A DNA stretch of 32,000 bases from Thermoproteus tenax Kra 1 (GCF_000253055.1 NC_016070.1:1560001-1592000), one strand, 5' to 3'. Counted from the stretch's first letter, positions 5,939 to 31,222 are shown. Notes: generated from the sequence alone by a model not told the origin. Translations and numbers: made by a program.

Positions 5939-6030
5939 GCCCCGGTAGCTCAGCCTGGTGGAGCGCCTCACTGGTAATGGTGGTTGACCGCCTAGTGAGG
6001 AGGTCCCGGGTTCGAATCCCGGCCGGGGCT
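5939..6030 (+). tRNA. tRNA-Thr(GGT) with one 18-nt intron in or next to the anticodon loop
   Basis: GCCCCGG-TA-GCTC-AGCCTGGTG-GAGC-G-CCTCA-CTGGTAA[18 nt]-TGAGG-AGGTC-CCGGG-TTCGAAT-CCCGG-CCGGGGC-T. All stems are Watson-Crick. Confidence 0.9.
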
Positions 6031-6859
6031 CTGGCTTTCCCTTTCATCTACGGTGTGTGAAATCGTTTGTGTCTACCCCCTACAGACTTCTTTGAAACGA
6101 TGGGCTTCAGTTCTACTCTGCGGCTATCTCTTTGGCTTGAGCCTCCCGTAGGCTTGTATGCCCATTTTGTTATGGTGGGCTTCCTCGGTGGGACCTCCTC
6201 TACAGCCCCCGCCCTCTTCTTCGGCAAACTCCCAGTTGGCGACGCGGCCCTATGTAGCACATGCCCCGAACCTCCTCGAGTTAGCCAGCGACGCCTAGCC
6301 CCTGCCCAGGCGAAGCTAGAGCTGGCTGGGTGGCGGAATACGTCATAAGATGTAGAAAGAATAAACCTGTCCTTAAGTATGCCCTCGCCTTTATGACTAG
6401 GGCGGCGAGTTTGCGACAGCTTCTCCGGCCTCGGCCAACGCCGCTACTTACCTTTGTCCTCGTGGTCGGGGCCTACGTAGGGCTCCAGGGGTCTATAAGA
6501 TAAATATCGCTTATGGGGAGGCTGAGGCGGGCTCGACGTAGTTTATCCAATATGCGAGGAATCTAAAACGAGCAGCCCAGCGCTTCATCAGCCGCTGAGG
6601 TCATCCCTTGGGCTCCGCCAAGGTGGGTAGACGCCTTCGTCGCGCGGGGGACGGCCGAGAGGGTAACACAGAGGCGCGGAAGCCTCCGTGGAGCTCCGCC
6701 TAGTTGGCCCTGAACAGGCAAAGGGGCGGCGGAGGGCGCGCCTAACGTGCCGAGAGGCGCCGAGGTCCTTAGTTTTATATTTAGAACAAATCCCCTTTAA
6801 TCTAGAGCAATAGATCCACGAGAATAATCCTTTTTAAGTTCGAAATATGAAACTAGGCG

Positions 6860-9225: not shown

Positions 9226-9362
9226 GCATATGAGGGGGCTTCTTCTAGAGGTCCGCGCTTTCGGCGCAGACGGAGGGCTTAATACGCGTGTGAGGGGCAG
9301 TGTCCCACGACCGCGCCGACAGGGGACGCGCGCAGGCCGCCGGCCCACGCCCGAGGTATTGT

Positions 9363-9419
9363 GCCGATTGGGGCGCAGATGAGTCCCACGCAACGCCGGC
9401 GTTGCGCCCGAGGACAAAC
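9363..9419 (+). repeat. GC-rich intergenic module, block B copy (contains a perfect 18-bp palindrome at 9389-9406)
   Basis: gccgattggggcgcagatgagtcccacgcaacgccggcgttgcgcccgaggacaaac aligns by eye with 11222-11290 (rc), 20368-20434 (rc) and 21396-21462 (rc). It ends a few nt before the TATA (ctttatatt, 9422-9430) of the downstream gene. Confidence 0.6.
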
Positions 9420-9449
9420 GGCTTTATATTCTAGTGTGGGATTAACTTG

Positions 9450-9956
9450 ATGTCCGAGTTTGTTAAACCCATCTACGCCAGAGCCTTCTTCAATATGGAC
9501 TCCACAGGCTTAGTAACACAGTTTATGGTCTTCTACTATTCAGACCCCAAGGCCTATTACGCAGGCCTCTCCAGAGAGGAGCTAGAGGAGGAGCTCGAGA
9601 CCGCCCGGGAGAATATGCAGGCGTTTTTGGACGAGGAGGTCATCAAAATAAACGGCGAGAGGGTGAGGGCCAGAGTAGTGCGCGTCGATCTGGGGCTCAT
9701 GACTATAAACTTGGCCCACATGACCTTCCTCATAGACTTCAAGGGGAATCTCAAGAGGGGGCTCAACGTCTACGAAGATATCTACGAGGAGGAGGTCGCC
9801 GAATATCCCTACGAGTTCCTCTGGCGCTTTCCGGGGCGCATTGTGAGGGCTACCGTCGCCGGCCGTTTGACGGTCGAAGGCGGAGTTCTCCACGTGAAGG
9901 TGCCCGCTGGGACTAAAGTGGGGGGCAGCGAGAGAGTGGAGTTCCTCTTGGACTAG
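9450..9956 (+). CDS. Hypothetical protein (no family recognised)
   Basis: 168 aa from ATG 9450, which lies about 24 nt after TATA ctttatatt. Balanced composition (MSEFVKPIYARAFFNMDSTGLVTQFMVFYYSDPKAYY...). The 3' end overlaps the aIF2-gamma stop in a convergent arrangement. Confidence 0.6.
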   Translation: MSEFVKPIYARAFFNMDSTGLVTQFMVFYYSDPKAYYAGLSREELEEELETARENMQAFLDEEVIKINGERVRARVVRVDLGLMTINLAHMTFLIDFKGNLKRGLNVYEDIYEEEVAEYPYEFLWRFPGRIVRATVAGRLTVEGGVLHVKVPAGTKVGGSERVEFLLD

Positions 9957-11188
9957 TCTAGGACGGCCTTCCCGCCTTTCAATACGCCGTAGTTGCTCAC
10001 GAGCCACCTGTTCTTGATCTGCCTAGTTATCACCGCCTTGTCGCCCTGCTCGGCGACGACGGCCTTCCTCAGAGCGATAGTTGCAACGTCCTTTCGGACG
10101 GACTGCACTACTCCGAACACCGTCGCTGAGCCTATGGACACTAAAACGGTCTCCCCCTGTTTTAGTGGCTCGGGCCTCTCCCCATGCCTCGGGAGCTCCT
10201 TCACCTCCAGCTCGAGGACTGTCCAGACCGGCGGCAGCGTGCCCGGCTTCCCCGCCACTGAGCCCGCCAGCGCATCGGCCTTAGTCAAGGCGGGGTCCAG
10301 CGTCGTCATCAATCCCACGAGCCCGCCCGGCCTGGCCTCCTCGGCCTTCTCTCCGCCGTACTCTATACCGACGACTTTAGTCAACAGAGGCTGATACGGC
10401 GCATTGGGCTTGTCCACTTTGAGCCCCGGCCTTATCTCTATCTCGTCGCCGAGCCTCACTGCGCCCTGCAACAACGTGCCCCCCAACACGCCTCCCCTCA
10501 GCTTCTCCACGGGAGTCCCAGGCGGATTGACGTTGAAGCTCCTGAGGACGGACATACGCGCCGGCTTGGACAGATCGGCCTCCCTCTTGGGGGTTATCCG
10601 CTCTATATACATGGCCAGGGCGTCTATGTTGACCTTGTGGAGCGCCGAGACTGGGACTACGGGCGACCTCTCGGCCCACGTCCCGCCCAAGAACTTCTTT
10701 ATCTGGCCGTAGTTCTCCAGAGCCTTCTCCTTGGGAACTAAGTCGACCTTGTTCTGCGCCACCACCATGTTTCTGACGCCGATTATGTCCAACACGGCGA
10801 AGTGTTCGGCCGTCTGAGGCTGGGGGACCGACATCGTGGCGTCTATGACCATGAGGGCCGCGTCGACTGCGGCGGCCCCCGACACCATTGTGGCGATCAA
10901 CACCTCGTGGCCTGGCACGTCCAAGATGGAGATCTTTCTGCGCAGCTTGGGCTCCGACCCGTCGGGGCACTTGCCCTTGTCCAACAGCCCGTCAGTGAGG
11001 GGGTACTCCGATCCTGGGCAGTCGTATATGCCGATCTGAGTATAGCCCAACTTTATCGTCATAGCCTTCTTGACCTCATCGCTGTGGCGCGCCACCCAGA
11101 CCCCAGAGAGCGCGTAGACTACGCTGGTCTTGCCCGCGTCAACGTGGCCTGCAGTCGATATTATCCCATCGGGGTAGACGAAGCCCAT
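9953..11188 (-). CDS. eif2g: Translation initiation factor aIF2 gamma subunit
   Basis: 411 aa. GTPase motifs GHVDAGKT (G1), DVPGHE (G3) and NKVD (G4), followed by EF-Tu-like beta-barrel domains II/III. Colinear with the archaeal aIF2-gamma sequences I know. Confidence 0.9.
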   Translation of the reverse strand: MGFVYPDGIISTAGHVDAGKTSVVYALSGVWVARHSDEVKKAMTIKLGYTQIGIYDCPGSEYPLTDGLLDKGKCPDGSEPKLRRKISILDVPGHEVLIATMVSGAAAVDAALMVIDATMSVPQPQTAEHFAVLDIIGVRNMVVAQNKVDLVPKEKALENYGQIKKFLGGTWAERSPVVPVSALHKVNIDALAMYIERITPKREADLSKPARMSVLRSFNVNPPGTPVEKLRGGVLGGTLLQGAVRLGDEIEIRPGLKVDKPNAPYQPLLTKVVGIEYGGEKAEEARPGGLVGLMTTLDPALTKADALAGSVAGKPGTLPPVWTVLELEVKELPRHGERPEPLKQGETVLVSIGSATVFGVVQSVRKDVATIALRKAVVAEQGDKAVITRQIKNRWLVSNYGVLKGGKAVLD

Positions 11189-11221
11189 GATCCCATAAAA
11201 GCAAGAGTATAAAACCCTGCC

Positions 11222-11290
11222 GCCTGTCCTTAGGCGCCCATCGCCGGCGTTGTGTCCAGGGACTTCCCCCTCGCCTGCGCCTCAACCGGC
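11222..11290 (-). repeat. GC-rich intergenic module, block B copy
   Basis: The sense (minus) strand reads gccggttgaggcgcaggcgagggggaagtccctggacacaacgccggcgatgggcgcctaaggacaggc. It shares gaagtccctgg and the acgccggcg core with 20368-20434. It ends a few nt upstream of the aIF2-gamma TATA. Confidence 0.6.
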
Positions 11291-11394
11291 GGAGGCGCAC
11301 GGCGGTTAGACCGCCGGCCTATGCCGGAGAGCCGACGCCCGAGCCCTCGGAGACTCCTCGCCCTCCCGTCCCCCGTCGGGCCCGCGCCGGCGGC

Positions 11395-11462
11395 GCATCT
11401 CTCCGCCGGAGGCTGATCTGTCCACGCCCGCCTCGCTACTATAGGGCGTTAGAGCAACGCCT
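11395..11462 (-). repeat. GC-rich intergenic module, block A copy (weaker)
   Basis: The sense strand reads ...gttgctctaacgcc...cagatcagcctccggcgg.... Compare ...gttgctcacgcc... (20530-20625 rc) and ...cagactacctccggcgcgg... (18638-18712 rc). Confidence 0.45.
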
Positions 11463-11467
11463 CTCGC

Positions 11468-11944
11468 TCACCGCCCGCCCTTGGCCGCAAGCTCAGCCAA
11501 CAGGCGCTGTATCTCCAGAAGGGTCCTCTGGACCTCGTCGATCCTCTTGTTCACTTCGTCGATCCTTTTGCTTAAGTCGTCTGCGCGTCTGTTCATCTCG
11601 TCGATTCTCTTGCCCAAACTCTCGGCCACGGCATCGATCCTCTCATTGGTATCATCTATACGCTTGTTCATATCGTCGATCCTTTTGCTTAAGTCGTCTA
11701 TACGCTTGTTAGTTTCGTCTATCCTCCTCGCCAGAGTCTCGGCCACTGCGTCTATCCTCTTGTTCATATCGTCGACCCTCTGCTCCAGCCGCGCCACCTC
11801 CTGCCTCAAGTCGCGGAGCTCGGCCGTAATAGTGCCCAGATATAACAGGAAGATGTCCTCCGTAGAGAGCTTCTTCCCCTCCTTAAGCTTCTCCACAACT
11901 CTGTCCACGGCCACTCTGAGGGCGTCCTCGACTATCTTGTCCAC
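11468..11944 (-). CDS. Coiled-coil protein with KRIDD heptad repeats
   Basis: 158 aa. GTG start 11944 lies about 23 nt after tttataac. The central region is (x)KRID(D/E)x heptads; no enzymatic motif is seen. Confidence 0.7.
   Translation of the reverse strand: MDKIVEDALRVAVDRVVEKLKEGKKLSTEDIFLLYLGTITAELRDLRQEVARLEQRVDDMNKRIDAVAETLARRIDETNKRIDDLSKRIDDMNKRIDDTNERIDAVAESLGKRIDEMNRRADDLSKRIDEVNKRIDEVQRTLLEIQRLLAELAAKGGR
11534..11767 (-). repeat. Tandem duplication, 2 x 117 nt (39 aa), built from 21-nt heptad units
   Basis: MNKRIDAVAETLARRIDETNKRIDDLSKRIDDMNKRIDD versus TNERIDAVAESLGKRIDEMNRRADDLSKRIDEVNKRIDE. At nucleotide level tcgtcgatccttttgcttaagtcgtct recurs at 11556 and 11673, exactly 117 nt apart. 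Confidence 0.85.
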
Positions 11945-12117
11945 AGCCCAACGGCCGCTCGGGGTTATAAATGTGGCGGATCTGAGGACCGGCGAGTAGC
12001 CGCTGGAGGGACATCGGCTATGGCAGTTTTCCTCTTGACGATCTGAGTTGTTGGCGCAAGCGAGCCGCTTAAATATATATACCCGCCCCAGGCCCCCTCA
12101 AACGTTGCATCTGGCGC

Positions 12118-12165
12118 TCCACTTGGGCAGGCAAGGAGGTCCCAGGGCATAAGTCCAACCGACAT
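12118..12165 (+). repeat. GC-rich intergenic module, block B-like copy (lacks the GCCGGC core)
   Basis: ccacttgggcaggcaaggaggtcccagggcataagtccaaccgac resembles gggagcgggcaaggaggaagtccctgggcgc (20368-20434 rc). It is oriented like the downstream hsp20 gene. Confidence 0.45.
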
Positions 12166-12280
12166 CAACAATGATCGCCTAGGGCAAACAGCAGTTAGAG
12201 GAGGCGAGGGGCTGAGGTGTAGCAAGATTGCCGTTTGAGGCGCTGGGTGAAGGTTTTTAACTGAGACACAGATTGTGTAT

Positions 12281-12673
12281 ATGTCCCAGGACTTAATCGA
12301 GGAAATAAGGAGGACTTTCGACGAGCTGTCCAAGGCGATCCAGAAGACGGTCGAGGATGTTGTGCGGACTACCACAAGCACGGTGAGAAAGATCACAGTG
12401 GAGCAAGGCATCAACATCAAGGAGCAAGGCGACGATGCAATAATAGAGATAGATATGCCCGGCCTAGAGCCAGGCGATATATCCCTCTTTGTCTCAAAAG
12501 AGGGTGACTACGTTAAAGCCGAGGGCGCCAGAGGCGAGAGGAAGTACAGCAAGAAGGTGTTTCTCCCGTTCAAGATAGAGCCATCTACCGTCAAAGCCTC
12601 ATATAAGAACGGCGTACTGACTCTGACCGCGAAGAAGAGCAAGCCCCAGGAGATCCAGATCAAAGTCGAGTGA
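12281..12673 (+). CDS. hsp20: Small heat-shock protein (Hsp20/alpha-crystallin family)
   Basis: ATG 12281 lies about 24 nt after gtttttaac. The alpha-crystallin domain reads ...AIIEIDMPGLEPGDISLFVSKEGDYVKAEG...FKIEPSTVKASYKNGVLTLTAKK. Confidence 0.85.
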   Translation: MSQDLIEEIRRTFDELSKAIQKTVEDVVRTTTSTVRKITVEQGINIKEQGDDAIIEIDMPGLEPGDISLFVSKEGDYVKAEGARGERKYSKKVFLPFKIEPSTVKASYKNGVLTLTAKKSKPQEIQIKVE

Positions 12674-18466: not shown

Positions 18467-18637
18467 ATACGGCGATGAGACCTACGTTAAAAATTATTGT
18501 CCCTGATATGACAGCATCAACAGCAAACCTCGCCTTAGGGCAGGGGGTCGTCGCAGATGCAGGCGGAAGGCCCAATATGCGCACACGCCTCATCAAATGA
18601 GGGGCTCTGCCCCGAGGAGGGCCGAGCGCCGCCCGGC

Positions 18638-18712
18638 CCCATGCCCGATGAGTCCGCGCCGGAGGTAGTCTGGCTACCGATGAAGGCGTGGGCGAGGAGA
18701 AACCCAGCCCTT
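18638..18712 (-). repeat. GC-rich intergenic module, block A copy
   Basis: The plus strand reads ccatgcccgatgagtccgcgccggaggtagtctggctaccgatgaaggcgtgggcgaggagaaacccag. At 21573-21650 it reads ccatgtccgatgaccctggcccgagacggctggctgccggtgaaggcgcgagctaggaggaagacctag. The core ctggct[a/g]ccg[a/g]tgaaggcg matches at 17 of 20 positions by eye. Confidence 0.6.
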
Positions 18713-20367: not shown

Positions 20368-20434
20368 CCGTCCCCATGCGATTACTGCCGGCGTAGCGCC
20401 CAGGGACTTCCTCCTTGCCCGCTCCCTAATCGGC
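20368..20434 (-). repeat. GC-rich intergenic module, block B copy
   Basis: The sense strand reads gccgattagggagcgggcaaggaggaagtccctgggcgctacgccggcagtaatcgcatggggacgg. It is the closest relative of 11222-11290. Confidence 0.6.
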
Positions 20435-20529
20435 GTCCATTACCCCAGCGCCGCTCTGACCCCCTCGCCGAGTATACCTCGTCCTTCACCGATCTGGGCA
20501 AGCAGCCCCTCTTGTTCGGAGTTCCACTC

Positions 20530-21462: not shown

Positions 21463-21572
21463 GAAAGCGTGTTTCTCTGTGCAAATAGGGCGCTTAAGCA
21501 CATGCCCGCAGTAAAGGAGCAGTGCCCCCACGACCCCCGGCCGGGGCCTGTCCCTGGAGGGGGCCTTTGCCT

Positions 21573-21650
21573 CCATGTCCGATGACCCTGGCCCGAGACG
21601 GCTGGCTGCCGGTGAAGGCGCGAGCTAGGAGGAAGACCTAGGCGTGAGTT
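21573..21650 (-). repeat. GC-rich intergenic module, block A copy
   Basis: See 18638-18712; this is the best-matching pair of the family. Confidence 0.6.
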
Positions 21651-22044
21651 CGATAATGAACGACTAGGGACAAACGGCTCCCGGGAGCTGACGGAGGAAT
21701 ATATTAATAGGATCAGTTCTGGGCCATCTATGAGCGACTGGATTATAGTGTCCGTGATCTTCCTTTTAGTCTTTGGCTTAACCTTGTTAGCTATCTATTT
21801 GATATATCTTTTGGCGCCTCAAGCGCCCACCGAGGCCAAGAGGAGGAGGTATGAGGCGGGCAATCCCCCGCACGGAGAGCCAAAATCAAGGTTGGCCATG
21901 CAGTATTTCGGTTACGTCCTCATGTTGGTGACATTGGGAGCCCTCATAGCAGTGCCCCTAATCTATTTCGCCTTGAGCCCCACATCTTATCTGTCGGCAT
22001 TTACTTCCTCGTCATAGTGGCCCTAGTGGTGTTAGCTGCCCTCT

Positions 22045-25982: not shown

Positions 25983-26132
25983 TGAGATAAAATCAAGTGA
26001 CCATTAATGTTAGCCTTCCTAAAACGACGCAAGCCCTCCCGTAGGCCAGGAGATGGCCCCCTCCCCTGCCCTAAAGGGCGAGCCTTCGGTTGTAATATCG
26101 CACACAAGATAAATTGGCTGCGATGTATCTAC

Positions 26133-26894
26133 GTGATACCTGCGATCGCGTATATCCGCGTCTCAACGGAGGAACAAGATCCAGAGAATCAACGGGAGTA
26201 TCTGGAGAAATGGGCGCCGGCCCACGGCCTCGCCATTATAAAATACTATGTAGACGTGGGCGTATCGGGGGCTATAGAGCCGTGGGAGAGGCCCGCCTTC
26301 AAGAGACTGATGGAGGAGGTGCCCCAGATGAGCCCCAAGCCCAAGGTGCTCCTCGTCTACGAGGTCTCCAGGCTGGTTCGCTCCTTCCAAGAGCTCTTCA
26401 AGCTACTCGACGTAGTGGAGGAGAAGCTGGGCCTAGTCGTCGTCTCGGCGTCCGAGAGAGAGCAAGCCCTCCAGACGGTGGACGGCATGTATCGCCAGTT
26501 TCTGAGAGCCGTGTTGGCCTTCGTGGCAGCTATGGAGAGAGAGTTCATACGCCAGAGGACCAAGGCGGCCTTGGTCAGAGCCAAGGCAGCGGGCAAGATA
26601 ACTAATGTGGCAGAGAGGGTCTCCCCGGAGATAGCGATGAAGATTGTTGAGATGAGACGGGCTGGGGCCTCTCTTAGAGAGATCGGAAGAGCCTTCGGGC
26701 TCTCCACCTACGAGGTCAGGAGGATCCTCTCAGCAGCAGGCGAGTATAGGCCCGACGAGACGACGTGTCCCCGTTGTTTCTCGAAGATGAGGGTGGCTGA
26801 GCGCTCTGCAAAGATAGCCGACGGGCTCTACAAGGTCGTAGAGCGCCTATATTGCCCCAACTGCGGCTACGAGGAGGTGGTCGAAAGGGCCTAG
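26133..26894 (+). CDS. Serine recombinase (resolvase/invertase family) with a C-terminal HTH and zinc ribbon
   Basis: Catalytic N-terminus IAYIRVSTEEQDPENQ (nucleophilic Ser) and VYEVSRLVRS. HTH: GASLREIGRAFGLSTYEVRRIL. Then CPRC...CPNC. The frame is open from 26007, but the GTG at 26133, about 20 nt after ataaatt, gives the canonical resolvase N-terminus. Confidence 0.8.
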   Translation: MIPAIAYIRVSTEEQDPENQREYLEKWAPAHGLAIIKYYVDVGVSGAIEPWERPAFKRLMEEVPQMSPKPKVLLVYEVSRLVRSFQELFKLLDVVEEKLGLVVVSASEREQALQTVDGMYRQFLRAVLAFVAAMEREFIRQRTKAALVRAKAAGKITNVAERVSPEIAMKIVEMRRAGASLREIGRAFGLSTYEVRRILSAAGEYRPDETTCPRCFSKMRVAERSAKIADGLYKVVERLYCPNCGYEEVVERA

Positions 26895-30972: not shown

Positions 30973-31109
30973 CTCCTTCTCCCAGCGCCTATCTCGGCTG
31001 CGTCGATCGTCCCAGCCTCCCTCTCAACGCCATAGGAGCGCCTAGCGGCGGCGTCCGTGTTAAGGTCGTTTGGAATCCCACGAGTTGAGTTTGAATGAGG
31101 CCTTGTTAG

Positions 31110-31222
31110 AGCCCCGGCCGGGATTCGAACCCGGGACCTCCCGCTCTCTTGGTGCTATGGCTTACGAGGCTCACGCGGAGCTAAGCTCCTGGGCGCTCCG
31201 GACCGGGCTGAGCTACCGGGGC
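31110..31222 (-). tRNA. tRNA-Thr(CGT) with two predicted introns (about 20 nt inside the anticodon stem at 29/30, about 17 nt at or next to 37/38)
   Basis: The reverse complement reads GCCCCGG-TA-GCTC-AGCCCGGTCCG-GAGC-G-CCC[20 nt]GC-CTCGTAA-[17 nt]-GCGGG-AGGTC-CCGGG-TTCGAAT-CCCGG-CCGGGGC-T. The acceptor and T arms are identical to tRNA-Thr(GGT). TATA aaatttttaagg lies about 25 nt upstream. Confidence 0.8.

Follow-up and report, generated by a model that had tools for sequence, protein, structure and literature searches.

A truncated right end of a TnpB-type insertion sequence in the GC-rich spacer upstream of aIF2-gamma of Thermoproteus tenax

The aIF2-gamma/hsp20 locus

The analysis covered a 32-kb window of the single-contig genome of Thermoproteus tenax Kra 1 (1,841,542 bp), corresponding to genome positions 1560001-1592000; window positions are counted from its first nucleotide. 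The spacer at 11189-11467 is flanked by two minus-strand genes, encoding the translation factor aIF2-gamma and a coiled-coil protein. The features of the locus are as follows.

9953-11188, minus strand: aIF2-gamma, 411 aa (Pfam GTP_EFTU, eIF2_C and GTP_EFTU_D2)
11208-11216, minus strand: TATA-like box TTTTATAC, read from the sequence, about 25 nt upstream of the aIF2-gamma ATG (11188)
11219-11298, minus strand: fragment A, a truncated and diverged right end of a TnpB-type IS (iterated nhmmer profile 11219-11291, E = 3.3e-10)
11226-11263, minus strand: family hairpin P1 within fragment A, GTCCTTAGGCG ... TGTCCAGGGAC, with the CGCCGGCG palindrome (11242-11249) in its loop
11276-11299, minus strand: remnant of family helix P2, with the inner helix P3 replaced by an 8-nt loop
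11299-11467, no strand assigned: GC-rich remainder of 169 nt, containing block A, the hairpins at 11300-11316 and 11445-11461, and a second CGCCGGCG
11468-11944, minus strand: KRIDD-repeat coiled-coil gene, 158 aa
12020-12190, plus strand (TnpB orientation): family copy B, internally deleted (nhmmer 12127-12185, E = 0.0017)
12275-12673, plus strand: hsp20, 132 aa (Pfam HSP20, E = 2.2e-11), syntenic in congeners

Orthologs of aIF2-gamma are found in 27 of the 29 genomes of the taxonomic family. Its true divergent neighbor is hsp20, a conserved gene that is transcribed away from aIF2-gamma in every congener. The overlapping ORF at 11965-12420 (minus strand, 151 aa) was rejected as a spurious antisense frame of the plus-strand hsp20, since synteny in the congeners supports hsp20. 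The gap between aIF2-gamma and hsp20 is 74 nt in one congener (G019), 272 nt in a second (G020) and approximately 460 nt in a third (G023), while four others have an ABC-permease-like gene between the two. In T. tenax it measures 1,086 nt, and this whole block is specific to T. tenax. Reading away from aIF2-gamma, it is composed of fragment A, 169 nt of GC-rich DNA without a match, the coiled-coil gene, and copy B, which is inverted relative to the fragment at 11219-11298. The right end of fragment A thus points toward the TATA box of aIF2-gamma, and that of copy B, at about 12190, toward hsp20. The TATA-like box at 11208-11216, a putative promoter element of aIF2-gamma, lies outside the repeat fragment and directly touches its right end. 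For annotation, this makes the T. tenax DNA between aIF2-gamma and hsp20 a lineage-specific mosaic, and the ORF at 11965-12420 should be regarded as spurious.

The coiled-coil gene does not occur at the aIF2-gamma/hsp20 locus in congeners. It has three paralogs in T. tenax (318933-319502, 1210901-1211542 and 1173229-1173618), with identities of 52-61%, and copies of the repeat family described below lie within approximately 500 nt of two of the three paralogs as well as of the copy in the window at 11468-11944. By contrast, none of the 41 metagenome loci encoding relatives of the coiled-coil protein carries a copy of the repeat, and no close T. tenax relative is among them; the association between the coiled-coil gene and the repeat therefore stops at T. 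tenax.

Motifs and folding of the spacer

The spacer had been described in an earlier note, made from the sequence alone, as the second full-length copy of a GC-rich module packed with short hairpins. We find that one copy of a multi-copy, GC-rich module is indeed in the spacer, and that its hairpins are real. The copy is not of full length: the match to the repeat family is confined to block B (11219-11291/11298). Block A (11395-11462), which had been counted as part of the module, lies within the stretch 11299-11467, which has no match elsewhere in the genome (best nhmmer E = 45) and gives no TnpB-like translated match. This unique sequence makes up 60% of the spacer. For block B, single-sequence searches gave hits with E of 5e-4 to 3e-3. 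The assignment of fragment A rests on DNA profile similarity of approximately 70-80% over about 75 nt, and no translated TnpB match was obtained for a fragment so short and diverged.

Both CGCCGGCG octamers are present as described, at 11242-11249 and 11385-11392, and represent an enrichment, with two observed against 0.08 expected in shuffled sequences. The three perfect hairpins also exist. The first, gcgcctc/gaggcgc at 11277-11298, extends to 8 bp (11276-11299) around its 8-nt loop; in family terms these are the arms of P2, the only part left after deletion of P3. The second, cggcggt/accgccg at 11300-11316, has a 3-nt loop. The third, ggcgtt/aacgcc, lies at 11445-11461, one nucleotide away from the position originally given (11446-11462), and sits 7 nt beyond the stop codon of the coiled-coil gene. 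Three perfect hairpins (stem of at least 6, loop of 3-8) compare with 0.65 expected from 2000 dinucleotide shuffles, which is a modest excess (P(>=3) = 0.028). The proposed long-range pairing of ccggcggag (11286-11294) with ctccgccgg (11401-11409) is correct as far as complementarity goes, but is at chance level, because a complementary pair of at least 9 nt occurs in 57% of shuffles. The folding energy of the spacer as a whole is ordinary, with z = -0.91 for the plus and -0.96 for the minus strand relative to dinucleotide shuffles.

A family of GC-rich repeats

Iterated nhmmer searches identified 46 copies or fragments of the repeat family in the 1.84-Mb T. tenax genome. Six of these are in the window, at 9250-9424, 11219-11291, 12127-12185 (extending over 12020-12190), 18550-18704, 20369-20442 and 21470-21679. 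Full-length units are approximately 280-290 nt long and modular, with three modules.

Module 1: hairpin P1, GTCCCTAGGCG...CGCCTAGGGAC
Module 2: the core, with nested helices P2 and P3
Module 3: ending in ...TTTAAGCC...GAATTTTTC...GTATGAAACAGCC

The full-length T. tenax copies have a median pairwise identity of 66%, and the best pair reaches 92%. The copies show no orientation bias relative to neighboring genes, with about 12 abutting gene stops and about 9 abutting gene starts. In one right-end subfamily of T. tenax and the sister-genus genome G005, the place of P1 is taken by a short hairpin, CCCCGCCC-TAAA-GGGCGGGG (locus L200, about 1775-1800; T. tenax copies at 853339, 752735, 687013, 1530688 and 704409), and a similar hairpin is found beside one insertion site in G005 and in a second sister-genus genome, G006.

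The family is present in only three of the 120 genomes of the class, namely T. tenax and G005 and G006, both of which are complete 1.8-Mb genomes from a sister genus. There are no copies in the eight congeners, nor in any of the 117 other genomes of the class. In a tree of the core, which is short and of low resolution, T. tenax copies seem to interleave with those of G005 and G006, with genome-specific bursts. T. tenax has its subfamilies in common with the two sister-genus genomes, where the IS is still intact. The T. tenax genome paper (PMC3189178) does not mention the family, and Rfam contains no match to the repeat, even at E <= 10.

Two other identities for the family were considered and rejected. 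The 3' part of the 280-nt element, consisting of TTTAAG, approximately 25 nt and ...GTATGAAAC, resembles a CRISPR repeat and could be taken for a leader or solo repeat, but the CRISPR repeats of the genome are different and there is no adjacent array. A virus or plasmid vector was also rejected: there is no match to the family in phage records, and nine pattern matches in viral contigs are all due to chance. A scan of contigs with a degenerate pattern returned only random GC-rich bacterial matches, the pattern being too degenerate.

The family is the 3' end of a TnpB-type IS

Read on the opposite strand, the family corresponds to the 3' end of a TnpB-type IS, and the matching TnpB subfamily is found in G005. 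The TnpB genes that T. tenax itself retains are not adjacent to family copies, and their tails give no tblastn match. With the TnpB Zn ribbon there are 57 matches in G005, 10 in G006 and, in T. tenax, 14, of which 7 exceed the cut-off. The IS load is thus very uneven between G005 and G006, which are otherwise similar genomes of 1.8 Mb. In both, the best-scoring Zn-ribbon matches directly adjoin family copies on their upstream side, always on the strand opposite to the family orientation, as in the following pairs.

G005: Zn ribbon 961769-961966, minus strand; family copy 961609-961730, plus strand
G005: Zn ribbon 126826-127023, plus strand; family copy 127062-127139, minus strand
G006: Zn ribbon 1321305-1321493, minus strand; family copy 1321180-1321257, plus strand

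The tnpB ORFs of G005, which encode proteins of 418-466 aa with a TnpB Zn ribbon, terminate within the family core. Their C-terminus reads ...PMPNDPTPEVSWIPMTAWARRKSLGAIA (...CPRCGGRLVRGPAPRLLLCPHCGWEGGRDVAAVINIERRALEEGRVPPGPMPNDPTPEVSWIPMTAWARRKSLGAIA) before the stop, and the family core, read on the opposite strand, is the DNA that encodes ...PMPNDPTPEVSWIPMTAWARRKSLG.... The TAG that stops tnpB in intact IS copies falls within the CCTAGGG arm of P1, and the family stretch overlaps approximately the last 45 codons of tnpB before continuing to the right end, ...CCTAGGGACAAACGG. Similarity among IS copies ends after ...CCTAGGGACAGCGCGG, and the terminus ...CCTAGGGACAAACGG is conserved in IS copies, in the deletion derivatives and in all the copies in the window.

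A tblastn search of T. tenax with G005 TnpB reached 14 of the 46 copies of the family; every one of these matches lies on the opposite strand and covers approximately residues 370-405. The search also identified longer, decayed remnants of the IS.

1657098-1657841: residues 151-405, E = 3e-69, ending in a family copy
703996-704409: decayed remnant
752739-753203, minus strand: residues 133-369 internally deleted, so that residues 2-132 are joined directly to 370-399
909797-909981: decayed remnant

The remnant at 752739-753203 is an internal-deletion derivative midway between the full IS and a miniature element. Only such decayed remnants are left in T. tenax, where no intact tnpB of this subfamily was found. 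The left part of the 280-nt derivatives, approximately 90 nt running from TTTAAG to GTATGAAACAGCC, has no significant similarity to the region upstream of tnpB in three IS copies of G005.

All six copies in the window, including that on the minus strand at 11300-11205, are colinear with the 3' end of tnpB and have a common terminus. Fragment A ends on the minus strand in ...GCGCCTAAGGACAGGCGG at approximately 11219, and in the alignment it is colinear with the 3' end of the intact G005 tnpB ORFs and with the other copies in the window. It represents the last 80 nt or so before the right end of the IS, where intact elements encode the 3' part of the omega/reRNA scaffold.

Structure of the family core

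In characterized TnpB elements, a segment at the 3' end of tnpB encodes a structured omega/reRNA scaffold that precedes the guide. The family core extends from the 3' end of tnpB to the right end of the IS, and P1 and P2/P3 therefore correspond to the helices of a guide-RNA scaffold that overlap the protein tail. Pairing in P2/P3 was assessed with 45 core sequences from the three genomes. Paired cells amount to 88.9%, against 83.0 +/- 0.7 in shuffles, and none of 500 shuffles reaches the observed value, while slid controls give 32-56% paired. Double changes occur in 61 cells, against 34 +/- 4.8 in shuffles (again 0 of 500), and involve 7 of the 14 pairs; these covariation counts are inflated by the relatedness of the copies and confounded by the overlapping coding constraint. 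The strand in family orientation has 57 A.C and 34 G.U cells, so that wobble pairing is more frequent on the TnpB strand. The helices were defined module by module, as RNAalifold on gappy alignments of the whole element gave almost nothing.

The intact module probably functions as an omega-RNA scaffold and would be expressed as such, on the analogy of the omega-RNA/reRNA modules of IS200/IS605 and IS607 elements (for example, those of ISDra2 and of Sulfolobus TnpB). Both are structured and GC-rich and overlap the end of tnpB up to the right end of the IS; in both, orphan copies outlast the decay of tnpB, with hairpins kept by compensatory changes. The T. tenax module differs in that it lacks an intact tnpB and is known here from its sequence, and fragment A retains only the last 80 nt or so. 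The suggestion that RNA structure lies behind the hairpins of the spacer thus holds for the family core, a scaffold-coding region in which P2/P3 pairing is kept through double changes. It does not extend to the hairpins at 11300-11316 and 11445-11461 or to the long-range pairing, which involve unique sequence with no family or comparative support. On inspection, we also rejected a C/D-box or K-turn small RNA: what could be taken for its boxes falls within the covarying P3 and is not conserved, and tandem G.A pairs are absent.

Mobility and decay

The deletion derivatives of approximately 280 nt are mobile, as seen from filled and empty sites in the sister genomes. In the first case, G005 carries a copy at 679024-679334 that the orthologous site in G006 lacks; the flanks are contiguous there and 82-85% identical. 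The empty site lies inside a gene for a 458-aa PLP-dependent enzyme (PALP, PF00291). This gene is intact in G006 (L269, 917033-921586) and a pseudogene in G005 (L199, 677524-680834), which carries an insertion of 277-282 nt. The G005 homolog is in four pieces; removal of the element rejoins residues 194-369 in one frame, and two frameshifts remain. At the protein level the pieces retain 90-96% identity, which indicates that the inactivation was recent.

The junctions in this first case, with slashes marking the boundaries, are CTTCC/GTTTGTCCC...GAACTGCC/CCACC (that is, CTTCC/GTTTG...CTGCC/CCACC) when filled and CTTCC/CCACC when empty. In the second case, filled in G006 and empty in G005, they are TAAACC/GTTTGCCCC...GAACTACC/CTAAA (TAAACC/GTTTG...CTACC/CTAAA) and TAAACC/CTAGG. 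In both of the cases examined, CC (equivalent to GG on the other strand) is found at each junction and again in the empty site, and the element is therefore a discrete insertion. There is no target duplication beyond this common dinucleotide at the junctions of the two cases, and no terminal inverted repeat was found, one end compared with the reverse complement of the other scoring no better than shuffles. At a third filled/empty site the flanks are too diverged for the junctions to be read.

The derivatives are comparable to prokaryotic MITEs, such as the SM elements of Sulfolobus and the MITE-like C/D-box sRNA element of Pyrobaculum calidifontis (PMC6009581), being likewise short, non-coding, multi-copy, non-autonomous, patchy in distribution and mostly intergenic. 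They differ from these in having no terminal inverted repeats, no target duplication and no C/D boxes.

Individual copies decay quickly. The copy at an orthologous position in G005 and G006 is only 53-67% identical, with many gaps, far below its flanks, at 91-97%. At another pair of sites (L201/L204; G006:450027-450257 and G005:1353171-1353352) the flanks of an orthologous copy are rearranged, with one breakpoint at the element, which suggests recombination between copies of the repeat.

These comparisons bear on whether the spacer could be an independent structured small RNA of 200-280 nt, belonging to a set of paralogous sRNA genes with their own promoters. A TATA-like box is indeed found near one end of many copies, there is the modest excess of perfect hairpins, and P2/P3 in the core covaries. 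Yet the TATA boxes are at variable distances and belong to the neighboring genes, and there is none at the copy that lies inside a coding gene. The sequence has no Rfam match at E <= 10 and a folding z of about -0.9; 60% of the spacer is unique, and the core is the 3' end of tnpB. The spacer is missing from the orthologous position in all eight congeners, and an orthologous family copy decays faster than its flanks. This lack of conservation, which the earlier note had named among the findings that would refute its proposal, argues against a locus-specific structured RNA or protein-binding site. We therefore consider an sRNA gene very unlikely.

The mobilizing enzyme

The absence of inverted repeats and of target duplication, together with GG at the termini and in the target, is the signature of the IS607 family (PMC6188088). 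Like IS607 elements (PMC6188088; PMC4058570), the family has no terminal inverted repeats, no target-site duplication, a tnpB gene, and GG at termini and target: CC/C in both empty sites corresponds to GGG or GGGG on the TnpB strand. Unlike them, it has no IS607-type TnpA, none having been found encoded by the element. Since the GG signature is present but the IS607-type TnpA is absent, we describe the element as working like a member of the IS607 family without classing it as one.

Genes with PF00239 are found once each in T. tenax, G005 and G006, and at least once in 27 of the 29 genomes of the taxonomic family, six of which have two to four. The only such gene in T. tenax lies in the window.

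26007-26894, plus strand: small serine recombinase of resolvase type, 295 aa

This protein has the domain order of a resolvase, and scores 27.2 bits against the IS607 transposase model NF033518, for which the cut-off is 110 bits. The gene is syntenic with aIF2-gamma, being approximately 14-15 kb away in the five congeners checked, and also occurs in genomes of the taxonomic family that lack the repeat. It has the appearance of a conserved gene of the chromosome, not of a component of an IS.

A different mechanism would be that of REP/REPIN- or PATE-like elements, which depend on a Y1 (HUH) transposase that works on hairpins in single-stranded DNA. Subterminal hairpins and the lack of inverted repeats and target duplication would be expected of such elements, and IS200/IS605 elements also carry TnpB. 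There are further similarities to REP/REPIN sequences with their RAYT, which are also dispersed extragenic hairpin repeats; the T. tenax family differs from these in its far longer units, in their derivation from the 3' end of tnpB, and in the absence of a Y1/RAYT gene from every genome of the taxonomic family. PF01797 was found in none of the 29 genomes at E <= 1e-5, in a search that detected it in six control genomes. Moreover, exchange by a serine recombinase accounts better for a dinucleotide that the two junctions and the target have in common. Movement by a Y1 transposase is accordingly extremely unlikely in our view, and the class of enzyme that moves the elements may be that of the serine recombinases. 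The exact boundaries and the IS607-like signature, in genomes with neither an IS607 nor a Y1 transposase, make this a small but concrete example bearing on how TnpA-less TnpB elements move in archaea.

Origin and significance of the spacer

We consider it very likely that the spacer is mobile-element debris, composed of a solo, truncated right end of a TnpB-type IS and GC-rich DNA without a match, rather than a new RNA gene. Full copies of the IS and their deletion derivatives of approximately 280 nt would have spread by cut-and-paste or by integration at GG (CC) dinucleotides. They have neither inverted repeats nor a target duplication. Once inserted, copies decay quickly, and in T. tenax the IS is extinct, with nothing but decayed tnpB remnants left. 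Fragment A would have arrived within the 1,086-nt T. tenax-specific block, between the divergent promoters of aIF2-gamma and hsp20. It most likely has no present function, any earlier function presumably having been lost.

The fragment could alternatively have been co-opted as cis-regulatory DNA or RNA for aIF2-gamma, either through a protein-binding palindrome (CGCCGGCG or CCTAGG) or through structure in a transcript reading through from the co-oriented coiled-coil gene. Its right end touches the TATA box of aIF2-gamma, the spacer is enriched in CGCCGGCG (two against 0.08 expected), and the coiled-coil gene and aIF2-gamma follow one another on the minus strand, where no T-run separates them before the TATA region, all of which would be consistent with such a role. 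Set against this, aIF2-gamma in congeners has a spacer of 74 to 480 nt without the element, the copies have no orientation bias toward neighboring genes (about 12 stops and 9 starts), and a compact genome is enough to account for copies beside promoters. We regard co-option as very unlikely.

There is also a slim chance of a more active role for the relics, in two separate respects. Orphan right ends might still give rise to transcripts resembling guide RNAs, with the neighboring host DNA (here the promoter of aIF2-gamma) supplying the guide, which could act with TnpB in trans or as regulators; and the chromosomal resolvase-type recombinase might be what moves the TnpB-only IS and its 280-nt derivatives. 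If true, the latter would constitute a host-encoded route of mobilization for TnpA-less TnpB elements.

On the reading that we prefer, in which the spacer is mobile-element debris, the recurring GC-rich modules of T. tenax would be relics of tnpB ends and deletion derivatives of one IS family, and not new RNA genes or regulatory sites.

A further repeat in the window is a perfect inverted repeat of 34 nt, between 5999-6032 and 31108-31141. One arm is the 3' half of tRNA-Thr(GGT). At the arm at approximately 31108-31141 (minus strand) neither ARAGORN nor Rfam detects a tRNA, and this arm may be a missed intron-containing tRNA or the remnant of an integration site.
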